Assembly (NCBI GenBank): GCA_964598725.1
Contig: CAZRCW010000002.1
Span: 226,282-290,281, forward strand
Source: an uncultured Gammaproteobacteria bacterium
Lineage (GTDB): Bacteria; Patescibacteriota; Patescibacteriia; 2-12-FULL-60-25
DNA: 64,000 bases
Reading direction: 5' to 3'
Part shown: in pieces, positions 8,793-29,796 of the stretch
How positions within the stretch are numbered: position 1 is the stretch's first letter
Layout of the letters: every line of letters begins with the position of its first letter
Notes under the pieces: generated by a model
What the model saw: only the letters and a program-made list of their open reading frames with translations
Databases searched by the model: none
Told to the model about the DNA's origin: nothing
Translations under genes and position numbers: made by a program

Positions 8793-11003
8793 TTAAAACG
8801 GGTCCGGAATATACATTGGCTCGTCGCTGTTAGTCGGTGGTTTCTTTTTAAACACTGTCGACGGTTTCTGCTTCCAAACTGACTTCGTTCCCAAACGTGG
8901 AGCGTAGTTCGGACGAATTGGCGTTTTCTGTTGGAAGACGGGCTGATCATCCCACGAAGCCTGCACCCCATTGTCCTCATTCCATTCCCAGGGTCGTTGC
9001 GGTCGATGCGCAAAACTTGGTCGACTCACCGTATCAATAATTTCCACCCGGTCAAACAAGCGTGGCGCGACTTCGTCGATGAATGTACTCACCTGGTTAA
9101 AGGCCAGCGCTTCGTAGCCCATTGTCATCGGATAACTCAGGACGAGATGACGACGCGCACGGGTAACCGCTACGTAAAACAAGCGACGCTCTTCTTCCAT
9201 TCCCCCTTCCTCCGTCATGGCGCGGCGATTCGGAAAGGCCGTATCCGCCAGATGAATGATAAACACCGAATCCCACTCAAGCCCCTTTGCTTGGTGAATG
9301 GTTGAAAGAATGACCCGTTCTTGATTCAAATCCACCGTCTCGCCTTTTCGTCCGCCCATGACTTCATCGTAGAGGGCGATGTCAGCCAGGAACTTGGAAA
9401 CCTCTTCGTAATTCTCTGCGAAGCGTGCGAGCTGTTCCAAATCTTCCAAGCGCTCCTTCCAGTTCGGGTACTCGCGTTCGAGCAAGGTACGATACGAAGA
9501 GTCGAGAACAGCGCGGATCATCCCCGAAGGAAGCGGGCTCCGAAGCACGATCGCTTCTCCGACCTCCATAAACTCCTGCCAGCCAACCCGACCACGACTC
9601 GCGAGCGCAGCCATCTCAGGCGCCTGAATCACTTCCGCTAGAGAACCAATGCGAACGGCACGTTTAGTGAGGTTCCCCGCCGTGGTTGCCCCAATACCCG
9701 TCTGCAAACCTAACACGCGAAACCAAGCGATCTCATCGACCGGATTGGCTGCCACACGTAGAAAAGCGATGACATCCTTTATATGGGCGCGCTCGAAGAA
9801 CTTCTGGCCACCTCGGTATTCATAGGGAATATCACGCTTCATCAACTCAAATTCCAACGCTTGAGAATGGGCACTCGAACGGAACAAAACCGCCATATTC
9901 TCAAGCGCCGTCCCGTCTGAGCGGAACTGAAGGATCTGTTCAGCGACGTAACGCGCCTCTTGAGCCGCAGAGGCGCACGGAACCAACTTCGGTTTTGGCC
10001 CTGGGTCACGCATCGCCACCAACTCTTTTTCAAACTGCTCAGTATTGTGGCTTAGCGATTCGTTCGCCAACTCTAAAATTTCCGGCACCGAACGATAGTT
10101 CGTGAGTAACTTAAAAATCCTTGCTTCAGGCCACTGTTTTGGGAACGATAATATATTCTTCACATCCGCTCCACGAAACGCATAAATCGACTGGGCGTCA
10201 TCCCCTACAACCAAGACATTTTGGTGCACAGCCGAAAAGCCCTTCACGATGCGCGCCTGGATGGTGTTCGTATCTTGATATTCATCTACCAAAACGTATT
10301 TGAACATCTGACTCAACCCTCGGCCAAGGGATGGATCCTCAAGAACCATCGCCATCAATGACAGGAGGTCATCGAAATCAAAGGCGTTCGAAGCCTTCTT
10401 ACGATCTTGATAGTTGATCGCGATCGTCGCGATATCTCCCGCGAACTGAATAAAGTGTGGATGCTTCGCTTTCAAAACATCCTCGATCGAGCGCTGCGTA
10501 TTCCGGGCATACGAAATAATGTTTTGGACAACCGATGGCGATGGAAAGCGCCGTGCCTTTGGATCGATCGACAGATCTTTCATGACCGCTTTCACCAAAT
10601 CATCGGCGTCATCTGCATCCAGGATCGTGAAGTTATTGGTATAACCAAGTGACTCTGCATAGGGGCGAAGTAAACGGCTCGCCACCGAGTGGAAGGTCCC
10701 GCCCCAGATCCGCGCCGCCTGCGGACCGACCAAGCCTCCCACGCGTTGTAACATCTCTTTGGCTGCCTTATTCGTGAAGGTCAGCAAGAGAATCGAGGAA
10801 GGATCGATGCCCTGCTCCAAAAGATAAGCCACTCGATACGTAATCGTGCGCGTCTTACCGGACCCGGCTCCAGCCAAAACCAAACAGGCGCCGTCACCAT
10901 GCAGAACAACGTCCAATTGCTCTTGGTTGAGCTCGCGTTGGTAGTCGATGCGGCCACTTGGAATCGCTCCTGCCGGGGTGGTTGAGAGAACAAAGGTAGA
11001 CAT
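8793..11003 (-). CDS. pcrA: ATP-dependent DNA helicase, UvrD/PcrA family
   Basis: Motifs present are LNQEQLDVV, Walker A AGAGSGKTRTITYR, VDEYQDTN, VGDDAQSIYAFRGA, TIHQAKGLEW and VAVTRAR. Confidence 0.9.
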   Translation of the reverse strand: MSTFVLSTTPAGAIPSGRIDYQRELNQEQLDVVLHGDGACLVLAGAGSGKTRTITYRVAYLLEQGIDPSSILLLTFTNKAAKEMLQRVGGLVGPQAARIWGGTFHSVASRLLRPYAESLGYTNNFTILDADDADDLVKAVMKDLSIDPKARRFPSPSVVQNIISYARNTQRSIEDVLKAKHPHFIQFAGDIATIAINYQDRKKASNAFDFDDLLSLMAMVLEDPSLGRGLSQMFKYVLVDEYQDTNTIQARIVKGFSAVHQNVLVVGDDAQSIYAFRGADVKNILSFPKQWPEARIFKLLTNYRSVPEILELANESLSHNTEQFEKELVAMRDPGPKPKLVPCASAAQEARYVAEQILQFRSDGTALENMAVLFRSSAHSQALEFELMKRDIPYEYRGGQKFFERAHIKDVIAFLRVAANPVDEIAWFRVLGLQTGIGATTAGNLTKRAVRIGSLAEVIQAPEMAALASRGRVGWQEFMEVGEAIVLRSPLPSGMIRAVLDSSYRTLLEREYPNWKERLEDLEQLARFAENYEEVSKFLADIALYDEVMGGRKGETVDLNQERVILSTIHQAKGLEWDSVFIIHLADTAFPNRRAMTEEGGMEEERRLFYVAVTRARRHLVLSYPMTMGYEALAFNQVSTFIDEVAPRLFDRVEIIDTVSRPSFAHRPQRPWEWNEDNGVQASWDDQPVFQQKTPIRPNYAPRLGTKSVWKQKPSTVFKKKPPTNSDEPMYIPDPF

Positions 11004-11116
11004 TGTCAGCAGAGTAGCGTTTTTGCATCCTGGACGAAAGAAGCTCGATTGTAAGGCTTGTAAATCTTCGCCTTTACAGAAAAAGTGCTTATTTTAAGCA
11101 AAATATGTTCCATTTC

Positions 11117-11145
11117 TTGACAGTTTTATTAAATTATGCCATACT
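11117..11145 (+). promoter_or_regulatory. Sigma70-like promoter TTGACA-17-CATACT with TGc extended -10
   Basis: It reads tcTTGACAgttttattaaattaTGcCATACTagg in an AT-rich stretch about 270 nt upstream of the lipoprotein ATG. Confidence 0.45.
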
Positions 11146-11416
11146 AGGGCGTTCTGAAAGTCGTAAACGAGCACTTCTGCCCGTCTGATTTTCTGGGAAC
11201 CAGAGCCGCGAAGCAATTCTTCAAGGCTTGAGAGTGAGGTCGCTCTTTCCCAACTCGACCTACCACACAACGTTTAATCACCTCGACGTCGCAACATACG
11301 TCCCGGTGTCAATGGATTTCGAGGCCGTCAGTCAAGGACGGTCTGCCTTCATCTCGTTCGGCCACGGTGGCCAGCGAGCGTCTTCTCCACGCCTTGAGTT
11401 CACGGAGAGTCATCCC

Positions 11417-12814
11417 ATGAAGCGTTTCGCCCTCAAGTCCCTCGTTCTCATTCTCTCGATCGTCGCTGGCAGCACCCTCACGGGCTGCAGCCAGCAGTCC
11501 GAGCGCTCCGCCGCCTTCGACCGCCGCATCGGCGCCCTCGAGGACGCGGGCCCCCGCGTCATCGCGGCGCCCACGCCGGCCCCCGCGCCCACGCCGGCCC
11601 CCGCGCCGGCCCCCGGCGCGGCGCTCACAGACGAGCAGTCGCGCAACTTGGCGACCCTGGCGTACTGCACGCCCGGGCTGCCCAACTACTGCACGGCCGA
11701 CTGCGACGGCGACGACATCGCCAACTGCGTCGACGCCTGCCCCGCGCAGAGCGAGGGCACGGAGGCGCTGATGAAGGACGCGCGCTACGCCCGGCGCGGC
11801 TGCCTCGACACCGACGGCGACCACGACGGCGTGGGTGACACCCAGGACATCTGCCCCACCATCAAGCGGGGAGACCACGAGGACCTGGCGCGGCGCGGCT
11901 GCCCGAGCCCCGACAGCGACAACGACGGCGTGTTCGACAACAACGACGAGTGCCGGCTCATCCCGGTCCACTCGCCCGCCACGCCGACCGCCCCCGCGGC
12001 CGACGCCCAGCACGCCGGGTGCCCCGTCGACGCGGTCCGCGACCCGGACAGCGACGGCGACGGCGTCCGCGACGAGCGCGACGAGTGCCCGCACGAGGTC
12101 GCCGGCGACGATCCCCACCCCGCGCGGCTCGGCTGCCCCGACGTCGACACCGACCACGACGGCCGGCCCGACCGCTGGGACGGCTGCCCGCGCATCCCGG
12201 TCTGGTCGAACCTCACGCAGGGCGCGCCCGACGCGGGCGACTACCCCGGGTGCCCCGAGGGCATGACCCCGACCAACGACGCGCCGCCCGCCATCGCGGA
12301 TGCCGGCACGCCGACCCCCACCCCGACGACGGCCGACGCCGGCAACGCGCCCAACGCGCAGCCCGCCAGCGTCGCGGTGGTCCCGACCCCCGTCGCACCG
12401 CCCGCCCCGGCACCCGCGCCCACGACGACCACCCGGTCGATCGACGGCGCGGACCTGGTGACCGAGCTCACCCGGCTCATGCGCCTCAACGGCGGCGGTG
12501 ACGTCGCTGCGCAGGCCTTCTGCGAGGAGGCGATCGCCAGCGACATCGCGGCGCACAACCCCAACGACGAGTGCCCGGCGGGCGCCCTCTACTGCTTCCG
12601 ACCGGTGACGGCGGGGCGGCAGGTGGCGAACTGCACCGGCACGAGCGTGGACCTCGCGGGCTGCACCCTCGAGGGCAACGGCCACGTCCGCAACGTCTGC
12701 GTCCCCAACACGGGCGTCCAGATCCGCTGCGGCGCGTCGATCCTGACGTGCGACGTGCCGACGCTCGCCGGCGCCATCGCGGCCCGGCCGCGCTCGCGCC
12801 GCCACCACCGCTGA
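11417..12814 (+). CDS. GC-rich lipoprotein with thrombospondin type-3-like calcium-binding repeats and a Cys-rich C-terminal domain
   Basis: GGAGAG lies 8 nt before the ATG at 11417. The signal peptide plus lipobox is MKRFALKSLVLILSIVAGSTLTGC, followed by a PAPAPT linker. The repeats are DTDGDHDGVGDTQDICP, DSDNDGVFDNNDECR, DPDSDGDGVRDERDECP and DVDTDHDGRPDRWDGCP. GC3 is close to saturation. Confidence 0.8.
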   Translation: MKRFALKSLVLILSIVAGSTLTGCSQQSERSAAFDRRIGALEDAGPRVIAAPTPAPAPTPAPAPAPGAALTDEQSRNLATLAYCTPGLPNYCTADCDGDDIANCVDACPAQSEGTEALMKDARYARRGCLDTDGDHDGVGDTQDICPTIKRGDHEDLARRGCPSPDSDNDGVFDNNDECRLIPVHSPATPTAPAADAQHAGCPVDAVRDPDSDGDGVRDERDECPHEVAGDDPHPARLGCPDVDTDHDGRPDRWDGCPRIPVWSNLTQGAPDAGDYPGCPEGMTPTNDAPPAIADAGTPTPTPTTADAGNAPNAQPASVAVVPTPVAPPAPAPAPTTTTRSIDGADLVTELTRLMRLNGGGDVAAQAFCEEAIASDIAAHNPNDECPAGALYCFRPVTAGRQVANCTGTSVDLAGCTLEGNGHVRNVCVPNTGVQIRCGASILTCDVPTLAGAIAARPRSRRHHR

Positions 12815-12877
12815 CGAAGCGGCGGTTCTCCCCCAAAGCGTTTGGGAGCGACGTCTGACGGCTCCCCCTCTCACACT

Positions 12878-12928
12878 TCACAAGTGATCGATGGGGGATG
12901 CCAGTCAACTCCCCCATCTCTTGTGTGA
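12878..12928 (+). terminator. GC-rich hairpin after the TSP3 lipoprotein gene (no clear U tract)
   Basis: The sequence is tcacaagtgatcGATGGGGGAtgccagtcaacTCCCCCATCtcttgtgtga. Confidence 0.45.
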
Positions 12929-12962
12929 TAGGTCACCTTCCCCGAAGTATCACTTCGGCCTA

Positions 12963-13017
12963 CGCCCGACGGTTCCCCGCTTAATAGCGGACTTGAACCT
13001 CGGGCGTTTGTCGTTTT
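12963..13017 (+). terminator. Second hairpin, with U-rich tail
   Basis: CGCCCGA...(inner ccgcttaatagcgg)...TCGGGCG is followed by tttgtcgtttta. Confidence 0.5.
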
Positions 13018-13054
13018 ATACGCAGAACAAGATGAGCAATTTTCTTTTAAAACA

Positions 13055-13082
13055 TTGACTTTTTGCTAATTATCCGTAGAAT
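13055..13082 (+). promoter_or_regulatory. Sigma70-like promoter TTGACT-16-TAGAAT
   Basis: It reads aacaTTGACTttttgctaattatccgTAGAATaat in a short AT-rich gap between two GC-rich ORFs. AGAAGAGG is the SD before the ATG at 13177. Confidence 0.55.
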
Positions 13083-13176
13083 AATAAAAGGCTCGTGATG
13101 CGTTCTGATGTAAAAGATCAGACGTGAACACAGCTAGAGTTCTACAACCCGAGCAAGAGAAAGAAGAGGTGCGTCC

Positions 13177-14553
13177 ATGACGGATGCGACTGAGAAACCT
13201 GCAGGACAAACCCCCGATCCCGACAGTGACGAAGCGTGGGGCTTCGACAACACCCCGCCACCGGACGTGGCGGCGGCACACCCGCCGCTCGGATCAGCGC
13301 CGCTGAACACAACTGGTCTACGACCGATATCGGCCGGGATCGCCGCCGCTCTCGAGCAGTGTGGTCCGCCGGTAGCAGTAGTACCCGCCACCCTCCCCCC
13401 GAGGGAATCGCAGCTGCTCATGAACGAAGAGCCGCTTCGTCGTCAGACGATAGAGGGTCTCGGCATGGAGCAGCCTGGAGCACCTGAGCGCCTCGATACG
13501 GTCCCCGCAGGGGGAACGGTATCGATCAACGGCGAACCAGGGAATGCGCTCCTGACGATTCGACCTACGGAGTTGGTGCCCGGCACTCAGCTGGGCTACC
13601 AAGAGTTCGCAGCAGCAGCCTCCCAACCTACTGCTGAAGGTAATCAGGAAGTAGACCTGACAGCCGTAACCCTGCCCCTGTCTCCCCGGGTACCGAGCCT
13701 CGACCACCGGACGGCCTACCGGCCGCCTCCGATGCCACGGGCTCTTGCGGGAGATGACACAGATCATGAAGTGGACCTGAGCCGACTGGTCGCGATGGTT
13801 CCCAGAGGCGTCATCCGCGATCACACGGCTCAGGAGCCACCGAGGGTCGCCGATACTCCTTCGCCCGAGCTCACACCGCCGCCCTCGGTCGAGCTCTTCC
13901 CAGAGCTCGCTGCCGCAAGCGGCGACATGTTCGACATCCCTGGAGCGAGCGCGACCAATGATCGATCATCGGCGACACCCGTAGACGCCGCCGCAGGCAA
14001 CTTCTTCCTGGATGATCTGGATCGAGGCCAGGCGGACCTACCTGAACAAGGCTTCCATGAGAGCGGATCATCACCCATCAATCCCGATGGATCGAAGCCG
14101 CCTACTGGCGACGACGAGCTTCTAGCAGAAGTGGGCGACCTCGCCTTCGCTCTCGCCTACCTCACCCTCTCCTCTCGGCTACCGACGGCTGGCCCACCCC
14201 CAGCTGCCACCGATGACGGACCGAGTCGAGCTCCGACACCTGCACCGCCCGTCGAGGAGCCGCTTCCATCGGTACTACCCCCTGAGCCGCCCACGTACGC
14301 AACTCAGGTGAGCGTTCCACCGCTCGCAAACTTCGTGGTCGATCCACCGACCAATGAGGAGACCGTCACCGCGCAGCGCGACGTTCCCACCCTCATCCTG
14401 CCCAGCCCGCCTCACCCCTGGTGGCGCTTCCGCTGGACTCATCGAGGCTGGTGGACCATCCGCAAGATGATGGTCGCCGTGATGATCACGGGCTTCATCA
14501 GCCTGGCGGTCGTCCTGATCCAGCGCTACCTCGAGTGGTACTACGGGGTCTAG
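13177..14553 (+). CDS. Pro-rich, largely low-complexity protein with a single C-terminal transmembrane anchor (tail-anchored topology)
   Basis: 458 aa with a good SD. The body has no recognisable domain and is rich in P/A/E/D. The C-terminus is PHPWWRFRWTHRGWWTIRKMMVAVMITGFISLAVVLIQRYLEWYYGV. Confidence 0.65.
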   Translation: MTDATEKPAGQTPDPDSDEAWGFDNTPPPDVAAAHPPLGSAPLNTTGLRPISAGIAAALEQCGPPVAVVPATLPPRESQLLMNEEPLRRQTIEGLGMEQPGAPERLDTVPAGGTVSINGEPGNALLTIRPTELVPGTQLGYQEFAAAASQPTAEGNQEVDLTAVTLPLSPRVPSLDHRTAYRPPPMPRALAGDDTDHEVDLSRLVAMVPRGVIRDHTAQEPPRVADTPSPELTPPPSVELFPELAAASGDMFDIPGASATNDRSSATPVDAAAGNFFLDDLDRGQADLPEQGFHESGSSPINPDGSKPPTGDDELLAEVGDLAFALAYLTLSSRLPTAGPPPAATDDGPSRAPTPAPPVEEPLPSVLPPEPPTYATQVSVPPLANFVVDPPTNEETVTAQRDVPTLILPSPPHPWWRFRWTHRGWWTIRKMMVAVMITGFISLAVVLIQRYLEWYYGV

Positions 14554-14614
14554 CCAACCCCATCCCTCCCCGTTCCCCGCTCCACGGAAGAGCGTCGAAC
14601 GTCTCCCTCCCCCA

Positions 14615-14663
14615 TCTCTCCCCAGCTTCCGTCCAAACCGGCTGGGGAGAGATTCTGATTTTA
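14615..14663 (+). terminator. Rho-independent terminator
   Basis: The sequence is TCTCTCCCCAGC-ttccgtccaaacc-GCTGGGGAGAGA-ttctgatttta. Confidence 0.75.
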
Positions 14664-14667
14664 TGGC

Positions 14668-14696
14668 TTGCTGAATGACTCCGAAGTTGGTAGATT
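14668..14696 (+). promoter_or_regulatory. Candidate tRNA-Pro promoter TTGCTG-17-TAGATT
   Basis: The spacing was counted by hand. It lies about 60 nt upstream of the tRNA 5' end and has the same TTGCTG -35 as the tRNA-Ala candidate promoter. Confidence 0.35.
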
Positions 14697-14758
14697 TTTG
14701 ACGGTTTATCAATAGATTGAGTTGTGCCTCGAGGTACCGAAGCAATGAACTATCGCGT

Positions 14759-14831
<73 letters not shown>

Positions 14832-14876
14832 CATGGTAGTTCATCGTAGATAATCGCACATTTTTCTTTACATCCT

Positions 14877-15803
14877 ATGCGCTCACGTGAAGCCGTTCCT
14901 TCTCTCGCCAGCAAAACGCCGGATCGACGTTTATTAAGCGCCGCCTCGTTCGCCTTCTTATTCGCTCCGAGTATTACCGGCTGCGAAGCGGTGCATCACG
15001 CCATGCCGGGCTCACCAGAACGTCCACGGTCCGAAATCACACGCATCCAGCAAGAGGGTATGCCCCGAACGATGGAACGGGTTTTGGCGTTGGCCGTTCC
15101 AACTCCGGCCGAGCAAACGAGACATCCCGCGTTTGAATTCTCAACGCTGCGTATCAATGGCGACTGGGAAAATATCAGCAGTCCCGCCCATAGCATGATG
15201 CAGGCATTCGAAGGCACCTATCCGGTCGTCGCAATGAACAAAAAGCCACTGCAGACCGATCACATCGTGACCCGTGGAAACCAAGAAACGAATGATCAGC
15301 TCGTCCTCCATACGGTTGAACTAAGCTATCGAGCCACACGCACCGTGGTACGGAACGTGCACGAACCACGAGGCACCTCCGCCGCACGAACTCAAGCGGT
15401 TGGGCAACAAGTGTTAGCTCGACCGGTGGGCGAGCGACTTCCGGGTCGAGGCCCTGGGCCGGAACTGCAAGAACGACACTGGACAGCCGTTACCTATGGC
15501 GCCGCGCTTGGTGAAATCTTGTATCAAATGGGACACCCAACCGATACCGGCGCCGTCGATGCGCACATGCATGCCGATCAGGCACGAAGCATTCGGAACC
15601 ATCAACGCTTTCAAGGAGAGATTTGTGGACCCGTGACCGGTATCGATAACACGATTTACTGCACTCGAGTCGTGAACCAGCCAACGGTACGCGTGGTGAT
15701 CGATGATATTCGACAGGAGATAGACCCAAGCGGCTTAGTCCGCGTCAGTGTGCTCTATCATGGCCTCACCCAGGTTAGCGAGCCTCCCAAACCTGATAGG
15801 TAG
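14877..15803 (+). CDS. Hypothetical lipoprotein
   Basis: 308 aa. Signal plus lipobox is LLSAASFAFLFAPSITGC. I recognise no domain. The 3' end overlaps the convergent methyltransferase gene by 29 nt. Confidence 0.55.
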   Translation: MRSREAVPSLASKTPDRRLLSAASFAFLFAPSITGCEAVHHAMPGSPERPRSEITRIQQEGMPRTMERVLALAVPTPAEQTRHPAFEFSTLRINGDWENISSPAHSMMQAFEGTYPVVAMNKKPLQTDHIVTRGNQETNDQLVLHTVELSYRATRTVVRNVHEPRGTSAARTQAVGQQVLARPVGERLPGRGPGPELQERHWTAVTYGAALGEILYQMGHPTDTGAVDAHMHADQARSIRNHQRFQGEICGPVTGIDNTIYCTRVVNQPTVRVVIDDIRQEIDPSGLVRVSVLYHGLTQVSEPPKPDR

Positions 15804-27456: not shown

Positions 27457-27639
27457 TCTTCCCATCCTTCGACGCCTCTCAGTGTGGTCTTGGTGACAGG
27501 AATTCACTGAAAGTCGTCGCAACAACTAGCCGCGTAGGCAACGTTCAACCGCCGATCTGGAACAGCTTTTGACACGGCCGCTCCGACCTCGCTGTTTTTG
27601 TCTTTGATTTCTGACATTTTGAATCTCCTTAAAAATTCT

Positions 27640-29796
27640 ATGAATCCTCCCATTCCTCCAAGCGTTCCACCTTCAGGCTCCGGTTCCGGGCTTTCCCCGT
27701 TCCGACCAGGAGTGAATCGCCCAGGACCAGGCTCAGGACGCCCAATGCGTTCTCGCTTCCCAAAACCAGCGCCTTTCTTGCGCTCAAATACGCCCCCACA
27801 ATTTCCAACGCCACCACCGCTCCCTCCGACGAACAATTCCCCACGAATCGTTCCGGCTAGCACCCCCGCCTCTACCGGCGCTTCTTTTAGCGCGCCCGGC
27901 GCCCCTCGCCCACTCGTTCCAGGTCATGGTGGTCCTCGCCCTCAACAGCCAGGTTCCCGACCTCAGGGTCACGGCGGCCCACGTCCAGGCGGACGCGGCG
28001 GCAAACCAGGTCGTGGCGGCAAGCGTGGCGGTCCCCCAGGTGGCGACCTCCCGAACGTCCGCATGACGACCTTCAAGAACAAGCCAACCCACAAGACTGG
28101 GAGTGATGAGGATACCCTCAGCACGACCGGTGAACAGCGCCTCAAGGTTGTGGTGGTTGGTGGGAACGAAGAAGTCGGTCGCAACATGTCGATGCTTGAG
28201 TATGGCAACGACATCATCATTATCGACATGGGTCTTCAATTCCCAGATGAAGACATGCCGGGTGTTGATTACATCATTCCAAACGTTAGCTACTTAAAGG
28301 GCAAAGAGAAGAACATCCGTGGTGTCATCATCACGCACGCCCACATGGACCACATCGGTGGCATCCCTCATATCATGCCGCAGATCGGCAACCCACCGCT
28401 CTTCAGCTCTGATTTGACCTGCGCGATTATCAAAAAGCGTCAGGAAGATTTCCGTCAGTGTCCCCCGCTCAATTTGCATGCCGTCAAATACGATGACGTG
28501 ATTCAACTTGGCTCGTTCAAGGTGGAATTCTTCGGTGTAGCGCACTCCGTGCCAACCTCGATGGGTATCATTATCACGACCCCTTGTGGCATCGTCGTTC
28601 ATACCGGTGACTTCAAACTCGAATCGGGTGAAAAAGCCGGATCCGTCCAGGAAACTGAGAAGTTAAAGGCGCTTGGCGACAAGAACGTTCTCGCGCTCAT
28701 GATCGACTCAACGAACGCGACTCAAACAGGTCGTCAATTGACCGAAGTCGACATTCAGCACAATCTCGACGAGATCATTCAGAACTCGAAAGGCAAGGTC
28801 ATTATCAGCACCTTCGCTTCCATGTTGTCGCGTATCCAGCAGATCATTTTTGCTTGTGAACGCATGGGTCGCAAAGTTGCCATTCTCGGCTTCTCGATGA
28901 GCTCGAACGTTGCCATCGCGCAACAACTTGGCTACATCAAGATGCAGAAAGGCACGCAGATCGAAGCTCGTGATATCCATAAGTATCCAAAGGAGAAAGT
29001 GGCGATCATCTGTACCGGTGCCCAAGCTCAGGAAGGGTCGGCGCTTATTCGCATCGCGAACCATGAGCACCCGATTGTGACGTTGGAGCCAGGCGATAGC
29101 ATCGTCTTCTCGTCTTCGGTTATTCCAGGCAACGAACGTACCGTTCAGCGCTTGAAAGATACCTTGTACCGTGAAGGTGCGAACGTCGTGCACTACCAGA
29201 TGATGGACGTTCACGCCGGTGGTCACGCGCGTCAGGAAGACTTGATCGAAACCCACCAGATGATCAAGCCAAAGTACCTGATTCCAATCGAAGGCAACTA
29301 CTCGTTCTTGTGTGAACACGCCAACGCCGCCGTCCGCGGAGGCTTCAAGCGTGAAAACATCATCATTGCTGACAACGGCCAGATCGCCGAGTTCGACAAA
29401 GAAGGTAACGGCATGTTGACCAACAAGAAGATCACGACCGACTACGTGTTCGTCGATGGTCTCGGCGTTGGAAACACCAACGAGATCGTGCTCCGCGACC
29501 GCCAGCAATTGGCGCAAGACGGCGTCGTCCTCGTGGTAGCCGTCATCGATTCACACACGGGTGCTCCACAGGCCTTACCGGATATCATTTCACGTGGCTT
29601 CGTCTACATGAAAGAACACCAAGAACTGATCACCCACGCCCGCAACAAGGTTGCTTCGATCTTGCGTGACATGGATCCACGTTCGCGTGCCCAAACCAAC
29701 TACTTGAAAGACAAATTACGTGATGAACTCGGCCAATTCCTCTTCGTCAAAACCGAACAGCGTCCGATGATCATTCCCGTGATTATTGAAGTGTAG
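27640..29796 (+). CDS. rnj: Ribonuclease J with an N-terminal Pro/Gly/Arg-rich extension of about 170 aa
   Basis: The beta-lactamase/beta-CASP core has LKVVVVGGNEEVGRNMSMLEYGNDIIIIDMG, GVIITHAHMDHIGG, VHTGDFK and HAGGHARQEDL. The start is ATG 27640 or TTG 27598 (uncertain). Confidence 0.85.
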   Translation: MNPPIPPSVPPSGSGSGLSPFRPGVNRPGPGSGRPMRSRFPKPAPFLRSNTPPQFPTPPPLPPTNNSPRIVPASTPASTGASFSAPGAPRPLVPGHGGPRPQQPGSRPQGHGGPRPGGRGGKPGRGGKRGGPPGGDLPNVRMTTFKNKPTHKTGSDEDTLSTTGEQRLKVVVVGGNEEVGRNMSMLEYGNDIIIIDMGLQFPDEDMPGVDYIIPNVSYLKGKEKNIRGVIITHAHMDHIGGIPHIMPQIGNPPLFSSDLTCAIIKKRQEDFRQCPPLNLHAVKYDDVIQLGSFKVEFFGVAHSVPTSMGIIITTPCGIVVHTGDFKLESGEKAGSVQETEKLKALGDKNVLALMIDSTNATQTGRQLTEVDIQHNLDEIIQNSKGKVIISTFASMLSRIQQIIFACERMGRKVAILGFSMSSNVAIAQQLGYIKMQKGTQIEARDIHKYPKEKVAIICTGAQAQEGSALIRIANHEHPIVTLEPGDSIVFSSSVIPGNERTVQRLKDTLYREGANVVHYQMMDVHAGGHARQEDLIETHQMIKPKYLIPIEGNYSFLCEHANAAVRGGFKRENIIIADNGQIAEFDKEGNGMLTNKKITTDYVFVDGLGVGNTNEIVLRDRQQLAQDGVVLVVAVIDSHTGAPQALPDIISRGFVYMKEHQELITHARNKVASILRDMDPRSRAQTNYLKDKLRDELGQFLFVKTEQRPMIIPVIIEV

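Follow-up and report, generated by a model that had tools for sequence, protein, structure and literature searches.

We examined a lipoprotein gene (11417–12814, forward strand) in a 64,000-nt stretch of DNA, here called the window, which spans positions 226,282 to 290,281 of contig CAZRCW010000002.1 in assembly GCA_964598725.1. The gene encodes 465 amino acids (aa), including a lipobox, five Asp-rich repeats of the thrombospondin type-3 (TSP3) kind and a C-terminal domain with eight invariant cysteines (the 8-Cys domain), and a preliminary description of the window, made from its letters, had read it as an acquired foreign island. Comparison with related genomes makes it likely that the conserved promoter, the folded leader RNA and the gene form one native expression unit for a putative calcium-repeat surface lipoprotein of a single genus of Patescibacteria, the gene itself being probably an old and fast-evolving surface lipoprotein gene of that genus and not a recent import. 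Every species maintains the extreme GC content at third codon positions (GC3) in this gene, and the 5' part of the leader is a conserved structured RNA, supported by covariation, without a known family.

The window is part of contig C2 of a 1.49-Mb assembly (genome G000), whose two large contigs, C1 and C2, sum to 1.33 Mb at 52% GC. Records of the genus carry the title Gammaproteobacteria. We rejected this label because named relatives of the neighbouring UvrD (60–66% identity) are Candidatus Uhrbacteria or Patescibacteria and because searches of the genome, which is 95.5% complete, found no Omp85/BamA, LpxC or OmpA (PF00691) domains. These observations point to a genus of Uhrbacteria-like Patescibacteria as the host, and we regard the recorded name as a mislabel. 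Members of this group are uncultured ultra-small bacteria, thought to be attached to other cells. The remaining 17 small contigs of the assembly (C3–C19, 2.6–37 kb) range from 39 to 69% GC, compared with 52% for the two large ones, and some of them may be bin contamination or mobile elements.

Orthologues and genomic context

We ran a six-frame protein search against the genomes of 40 relatives, nine from the same genus and 31 from other genera. The protein was found in five of the nine and in none of the 31, with 36–46% amino acid identity to the window protein. All orthologue loci recovered in this way encode a lipobox, TSP3 repeats and the 8-Cys domain. A covariance model of the leader RNA added two diverged loci missed by the protein search (in G008 and G009), which encode lipoproteins with one recognisable TSP3-type motif, and the gene, the leader or both are present in nine of the ten genomes of the genus. 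Wherever the contig reaches uvrD, the gene adjoins it (genomes G003, G004, G006 and G009, and metagenome contigs L032 and L035), in divergent orientation and sometimes with a small coiled-coil open reading frame (ORF) in between. Independent assemblies from different samples exclude an assembly chimera, and no integrase-like ORF was seen in the ORF list of positions 9000–15500.

Metagenome contigs reached through their UvrD homologues extend the comparison to more distant relatives. At 80% UvrD identity (L035/L036) we found a 311-aa orthologue with a GC3 of 0.97, and at 76% (L032) a TSP3 lipoprotein with a GC3 of 0.90. At 70% (L034, 1851–3389), the same promoter and 5' CGTTCTGAAG hairpin precede a different lipoprotein of 353 aa and GC3 0.98, which has three CxxxxxxCCxxxxC-type Cys-rich repeats and no TSP3 repeats. 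Since a different lipoprotein stands behind the same control region, the coding sequence at this site has been replaced at least once. Among the orthologues, Pfam TSP_3 matches five of six. The number of TSP3 repeats varies from one to five depending on the species and the linkers are hypervariable, which fits a spacer or stalk.

A recent island should be missing from the corresponding site in close relatives and should have an atypical composition that decays by amelioration. Here the gene is present at the site in close relatives, and its composition is atypical yet stays at a GC3 of 0.90–0.97 in all lineages. The preliminary description had itself named, as an outcome that would argue against acquisition, best hits and codon usage matching relatives of the backbone organism. 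This is what we found: the best full-length relatives belong to relatives of the backbone, lie beside uvrD where it is reached, and share the same extreme GC3. Its further expectation that a TSP3 lipoprotein would be out of place in a minimal genome did not hold either, since 46 of the 301 genomes sampled from the phylum contain TSP_3 repeats (32 above the cut-off). Outside matches to OmpA-family proteins of Polyangia/Myxococcales (Myxococcota) are confined to the repeats, covering 20–57% of the query.

The coiled-coil ORF found between uvrD and the leader is 131–171 aa long with a GC3 of 0.37 (L002 522–917, L005 2317–2727, L026 906–1397, L035 2725–3240). G000 has a homologue elsewhere, at C1:224774–225031, directly after another lipoprotein gene pair of GC3 0.96.

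Third-position GC content

The lipoprotein gene has a GC content of 0.757 and a GC3 of 0.968, compared with a GC3 of 0.55–0.62 in backbone genes and about 0.57 in the genome. The first two codon positions are also GC-rich (GC1 0.71 and GC2 0.59, against about 0.59 and 0.41). A or T ends only 14 of the 465 codons, four of which lie in the signal peptide. The gene had been singled out as the most GC-rich in the window, and the most GC-rich 500-nt segments of the two large contigs fall within it (peak 0.788). The composition changes in a step at the start codon, from a leader of 52% GC to the GC3-rich coding sequence.

To place this bias on an evolutionary scale, we compared silent sites between species. 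In uvrD, four-fold degenerate sites at identical residues are 35–50% identical, corresponding to a silent divergence of about 0.8–1.5 substitutions per site by a Jukes–Cantor estimate. Over such divergence a foreign GC3 signal should reportedly decay substantially, according to the amelioration argument of Lawrence and Ochman. The silent sites of uvrD are thus heavily diverged, yet the GC3 of the lipoprotein orthologues is 0.90–0.97, so that the bias is maintained and not fading. Four-fold sites of the lipoprotein gene are 81–100% G or C in every species (89–100% in pairs with the window genome), and they are about 43–63% identical between species in all but the closest pair. This level of identity is the expectation for a random choice of G or C, implying that substitutions went on at these sites but did no more than swap G for C and C for G. 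The silent-site comparison turns a gene that looks foreign into evidence of a measurable evolutionary force, and composition does not appear to be a reliable sign of transfer here, where a gene of GC3 0.97 in a genome of about 0.57 is probably native and old.

We considered whether G- and C-ending codons might be the high-expression set of this organism and rejected this, as housekeeping genes show no such preference (GC3 0.55–0.69; GroEL 0.62, DnaK 0.61, RpoB 0.63, L2 0.56, S12 0.55). Ordinary translational selection therefore does not explain the bias. The gene has company: about 60 of roughly 1226 long ORFs on C1 and C2 have a GC3 of at least 0.80, many with lipoboxes or lipoprotein signal peptides. 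Our leading guess at the cause is recombination-linked GC-biased repair, which may act at fast-evolving surface genes. Examples of other GC3-rich genes are two adjacent lipoprotein genes (GC3 0.96, C1:221787–224488) and four tandem 200-aa paralogues (GC3 0.87–0.96, C1:558331–561594).

Promoter and leader RNA

The preliminary description had pointed to a single good promoter followed by a long leader, and this part of it stands: the promoter listed in Table 1 is the sole sigma-70-like match 5' of the gene, in a region that holds two such matches, where shuffled sequences predict 0.1. Eight genomes of the genus carry it in nearly identical form. When the upstream regions of six genomes were aligned, the promoter, an A/T-rich block 5' of it and the first ~165 nt after it were conserved despite differing neighbours; the A/T-rich block, which contains the palindrome GCTTATTTTAAGC (11087–11099), aligns in all six although the genes farther upstream differ. 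Mean column identity in the leader core is 70%, compared with 35–50% at neutral sites.

Seven sequences, each folded alone, gave the same architecture. A long hairpin A, with an inner hairpin, is followed by a three-way junction, a single-stranded CACACGAG (which reads CACACAAC in the window genome) and hairpin C. The junction is closed by TGGGAA...TTCCCA, or by TGGGG/CCCCA in G004, G005 and G009, and holds a variable hairpin B1 together with a hairpin GAGAGY...GCTCT (GAGAGC/GCTCT). Junction and loop sequences, namely GTTCTGAAG, TGGGAAC and CACACGAG, are invariant or nearly so, while the stems covary. We counted covariation in a model-fitted alignment of nine sequences with 43 pairs, using 500 shuffles and slid-partner controls. 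Paired cells made up 86.8%, against 40–53% with the partners slid, both sides had changed in 23 of the 43 pairs and none of the 500 shuffles reached the observed covariation score, although these counts lean towards structure, the structure having been derived from the same related sequences and the alignment fitted to it.

A cis-regulatory leader is expected to have a covariation-supported structure upstream of its gene and in the same orientation, and the core has both. The covariance model R1 finds exactly one copy in nine of the ten genomes of the genus (eight of the nine others), always before the lipoprotein gene, and no copy in 117 genomes of 32 other genera. A leader family extending beyond the genus was considered and rejected, as the broader model R2 adds only a match in G047 that lies inside a coding region and is spurious. 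The leaders of L032 and L034 have diverged so far that they are recognisable by eye but give no significant model score. Against Rfam 15 (4227 families) with permissive E-value filters, the only matches were two at chance level on the opposite strand (E 4.5 and 6.7). Of what had been said about the leader at 11146–11416, the backbone-like composition (52% GC) thus holds, whereas the remark that it has no recognisable function does not extend to its 5' 167 nt; the covariance-model scan and folding proposed at that stage returned no Rfam family but did reveal a conserved fold. The core is a structured RNA motif that is new and well supported by comparison, in a group of organisms from which, to our knowledge, very few regulatory RNAs are known.

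Downstream of the core, the sequence of the leader's 3' half varies between genomes while the total leader length is kept at 251–287 nt and G+C-rich hairpins persist in this half. A scan of the leader interior from the core to the ATG found no promoter-like site and no terminator-like site with a U-tract. Covarying stems, invariant junctions and a variable 3' part are together typical of an aptamer or protein-binding leader, and the hairpin near the 5' end would equally suit a stabiliser that protects the mRNA from decay starting at that end. Structured leaders of envelope mRNAs include the 5' untranslated regions (UTRs) of Escherichia coli ompA and Lactobacillus slpA, and leaders with folded ligand-binding parts include the riboswitch aptamers. 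With these our leader shares the long 5' UTR, the strong promoter and the hairpin near the 5' end, and with aptamers it shares the typical conservation pattern of covarying stems, conserved junction nucleotides and a variable 3' "platform"; unlike them, its core has no Rfam match and is restricted to one genus and one gene.

Several other readings of the leader were tried and set aside. Sequestration of the Shine–Dalgarno sequence was rejected since its pairing probability differs between species (0.11–0.88). The leader is not a recognisable remnant of the 131–171-aa coiled-coil ORF seen in G004, G006 and G008, as a tblastn search of the intergenic region detected nothing of that ORF. The GTTCTGA at the leader's 5' end is not a genome-wide leader or regulon motif, with 173 occurrences against 162 expected and three behind promoter-like sites.

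A neighbouring Pro-rich gene (13177–14553) has its own promoter at 13055–13082, and its leader (promoter and leader together span 13055–13176) contains GCGTTCTGATG and then a hairpin, resembling the GCGTTCTGAAAG and hairpin that open the lipoprotein leader. Near C2:395825, a third promoter has CGTTCTGA behind it and precedes a 117-aa ORF of GC3 0.91 at C2:395863. These are the only three cases of promoter plus motif, and the motif is not enriched genome-wide.

Protein architecture and competing explanations

The reading of the ORF as a lipoprotein with an LTGC lipobox was borne out. The signal peptide is MKRFALKSLVLILSIVAGSTLTG, with the cleavage point directly before the lipobox Cys at residue 24, and the sequence follows the bacterial lipoprotein pattern [LVI][ASTVI][GAS]C after an N-terminal signal peptide; the Gly-Cys pair is invariant across six orthologues. 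Ala, Pro, Asp and Gly are abundant in the protein. A PAPAPT linker is encoded, as first described, by a tandem 18-mer, which is exact (unit GCGCCCACGCCGGCCCCC). For the repeats, the earlier count of four or five becomes five: Pfam TSP_3 (PF02412) matches in five stretches at 47.3 bits (E 1.6e-12; gathering cut-off 25 bits), and DxDxDGxxDxxDxC-type motifs occupy residues 95–108, 133–146, 166–179, 211–224 and 244–257, each repeat being followed by a ...GCP segment, with 14 Cys at residues 84–279 around the repeat stretch. TSP_3 is the sole domain detected, and the OmpA domain or beta-barrel that marks OmpA-family TSP3 proteins is absent. The second linker aligns poorly and varies in length among orthologues. 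The Cys-rich C-terminal domain was likewise upheld, with eight Cys at residues 369–445 (12521–12751), within the last 126 residues, that are invariant in seven orthologues. Most orthologues have GGAG or GAGG at a distance from the start similar to that of the Shine–Dalgarno sequence in the window. A longer frame, opened by TTG 11228 or by upstream ATGs in the same frame, was rejected: these starts have no Shine–Dalgarno sequence and are not conserved, and the signal peptide would be buried.

The 8-Cys domain appears to be private to one small family and lineage, having been found only there. A profile search with the domain returned nine proteins among 1.84 billion representative proteins. Eight of these are full-length and share a layout of lipobox or N-terminal transmembrane helix, TSP3 repeats (absent in one of the eight), a linker rich in Asp, Ala and Gly, and the 8-Cys domain, which is all that the ninth, a fragment of 166 aa, contains. 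The family variant with a transmembrane anchor, P0030, was not found in the genome contigs searched. A PDB sequence search with the domain profile gave no match, and a profile search with the alignment of the whole protein was dominated by TSP3-OmpA proteins, with none of the family among its matches.

Two kinds of known protein resemble the lipoprotein in part. Bacterial TSP3 OmpA-family proteins (PF02412 and PF00691) have in common with it the Asp-rich DxDxDGxxDxxDxC repeats with paired Cys, and one of them, PDB 5wtl ("OmpA family protein"), is the only PDB sequence match (E 9.9e-7, residues 210–260 of the lipoprotein). The lipoprotein differs in having no peptidoglycan-binding OmpA domain or beta-barrel, and instead an N-terminal lipid anchor and an unrelated 8-Cys end. 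Myxococcus MtsC (NF047638) and TraB (NF033763), the best NCBIfam matches, carry TSP3 repeats on cell–cell contact proteins, a role akin to the one we propose below. The match is limited to the repeats, at 44 bits for MtsC (cut-off 350) and 41.6 bits for TraB (cut-off 700), and the lipoprotein, which has neither a MYXO-CTERM tag nor an OmpA domain, is a member of neither family.

A recent single-gene transfer from a high-GC Gram-negative donor such as a member of the Myxococcota would account for a gene of 76% GC in a genome of 52% GC, for best outside matches among Polyangia/Myxococcales TSP3-OmpA proteins and the MtsC and TraB models, and for a tRNA-Pro gene 1.9 kb downstream. It is nonetheless very improbable and already largely refuted: orthologues in the genus have the same promoter and leader, the outside matches cover the repeats only, at 34–50% identity and always in proteins with the OmpA or beta-barrel domains missing here, the MtsC and TraB scores fall far below their cut-offs, and the C-terminal domain is confined to a small family. 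The GC3 has not decayed despite heavy silent-site divergence, and the composition steps up precisely where the native, conserved leader gives way to the start codon. In an older event, the ancestor of the genus would have received the TSP3 module or the whole gene from a high-GC donor; a native promoter and leader would have been joined to it, and its GC-richness kept up ever since. This seems to us unlikely but worth keeping in view. The closest repeat sequences are in high-GC diderms, GC1 (0.71) and GC2 (0.59) are raised alongside GC3 as in the proteins of high-GC organisms, and in L034, at 70% UvrD identity, a Cys-rich lipoprotein of another kind, lacking TSP3, occupies this locus. Such a transfer explains little, however, because a force that maintains GC3 would still be required; TSP3 is common in the phylum, making a donor within the phylum equally possible, and short Asp-rich repeats hold little phylogenetic signal.

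Two further explanations concern the leader. The 165-nt element could be a separate small RNA gene, the lipoprotein gene having its own unrecognised promoter, given that the conserved part stops about 100 nt before the start codon, that G+C-rich hairpins come after it and that terminators in G000 appear to be without U-tracts. We consider this improbable, as the stretch from core to ATG contains no promoter-like site, the leader length is conserved at 251–287 nt, and the element occurs only before the lipoprotein gene and moves with it when the upstream neighbours differ (G001, G005, G008). It is also possible, if doubtful, that the leader is merely a 5' stabiliser like the 5' UTR of ompA or of the S-layer gene slpA, with G- and C-ending codons reflecting selection for very high expression. 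The strong extended −10 promoter agrees with this, and so does the hairpin that starts a few nucleotides from the predicted 5' end, a position in which it should keep RNase J (presumably the product of the rnj gene annotated at 27598–29796 by the first-stage reader of the window) from 5'-end-dependent decay of the mRNA. Two observations do not: highly expressed housekeeping genes have a GC3 of only 0.55–0.69, so that G and C endings are not translationally preferred, and a plain stabiliser needs structure and not sequence, yet the junctions and loops are near-invariant while the stems covary.

The native expression unit, which we favour as the likely explanation, would work as follows. The conserved sigma-70 promoter would give rise to a transcript with a leader of ~270 nt, whose 167-nt core may act in cis on mRNA stability or expression, most likely through recognition by a protein, a ligand or an RNase. 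The product would be exported and lipid-anchored by Lgt and LspA (signal peptidase II), both of which are encoded in the genome (PF01790, 145.1 bits, and PF01252, 75.7 bits); lipid modification is predicted from the lipobox and these two enzymes. Since no outer-membrane genes were found, the cytoplasmic membrane would be expected to carry the lipoprotein on its outer face. From the anchor outward, a flexible Pro/Ala stalk would be followed by one to five TSP3 repeats, a second flexible linker and a disulfide-rich 8-Cys end domain, and a calcium-stiffened stalk presenting a binding domain would suit a protein for adhesion or surface contact in an episymbiotic cell. The gene thereby offers a concrete candidate for a surface-contact protein, with a lipid anchor, a predicted calcium-repeat stalk and a seemingly private 8-Cys end domain, in cells without an outer membrane.

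Some observations weigh against parts of this explanation, in addition to the lean of the covariation counts noted above and the possibility that the TSP3 module was acquired long ago from a donor of high GC content. The transcription start is predicted from the promoter match, and co-transcription of leader and gene is a predicted link. The outermost helix, P0, would lie partly 5' of the predicted start and shows no both-sided change. Pairing of the Shine–Dalgarno sequence is inconsistent across species, and no switching mechanism is visible. AlphaFold modelled the 8-Cys domain weakly, with a pLDDT of 78 in one of five models and 46–51 in the other four, and Foldseek found no fold match to the model in the PDB (best E 0.42, TM about 0.2). 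Calcium binding and a role in adhesion are both suggested by analogy with the TSP3 repeats of other proteins, their sole basis.

More tentatively, and with little confidence, a more novel basis could be proposed for each of the two unusual features of the locus. The core would be a new sensing riboregulator, perhaps responding to a divalent cation, an envelope signal or a host-contact signal, and switching on a calcium-binding adhesin. Separately, a GC3 of ~97% would be held by a gene-targeted process acting on surface-protein genes of Patescibacteria (for example recombination-linked GC-biased repair) and would reflect neither ancestry nor translational selection.

Table 1. Features of the lipoprotein locus, in window coordinates
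Feature	Position	Strand	Basis
Conserved A/T-rich block 5' of the −35 box, candidate UP element or operator	11066..11116	+	Alignment of six genomes; function putative
Sigma-70-type promoter TTGACA-17-CATACT with TG extended −10	11117..11145	+	Consensus scan, 10/12 matches
Conserved structured leader core, 167 nt	11146..11312	+	Models R1 (145.9 bits) and R2 (126.9 bits); folds; covariation
Variable 3' half of leader with G+C-rich hairpins (GGCCGTC...GACGGTC, GGCCAC...GTGGCC)	11313..11403	+	Fold and comparison
Shine–Dalgarno sequence GGAGAG, 7 nt 5' of ATG	11404..11409	+	Read from sequence
Lipoprotein coding sequence, 465 aa	11417..12814	+	ORF list and translation; orthologues in genus
Lipoprotein signal peptide and lipobox LTGC (Cys24)	11417..11488	+	Read from sequence; lipobox in all full-length orthologues
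Exact 18-nt tandem, 2.3 copies, encoding PAPAPT linker	11567..11607	+	Tandem Repeats Finder, 100% matches
Five TSP3-type Asp-rich repeats	11699..12187	+	Pfam TSP_3 and motif positions
Second low-complexity linker, Pro/Thr/Ala/Asp-rich	12254..12433	+	Read from translation
C-terminal domain with eight invariant Cys, then basic tail	12434..12811	+	Alignment A5
Terminator-like G+C-rich hairpin without U-tract, CACAAG-GATGGGGGA-loop-TCCCCCATC-CTTGTG	12879..12925	+	Sequence and fold; function putative

Downstream of the stop codon, the segment 12879–12958 holds two G+C-rich hairpins without a U-tract, GATGGGGGA...TCCCCCATC and CCGAAG...CTTCGG, and a U-tract may perhaps be dispensable for terminators in G000. 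The tRNA-Pro(CGG) gene, whose product reads CCG, lies at 14759–14832, just downstream of the two Pro-rich genes heavy in CCG and CCC.

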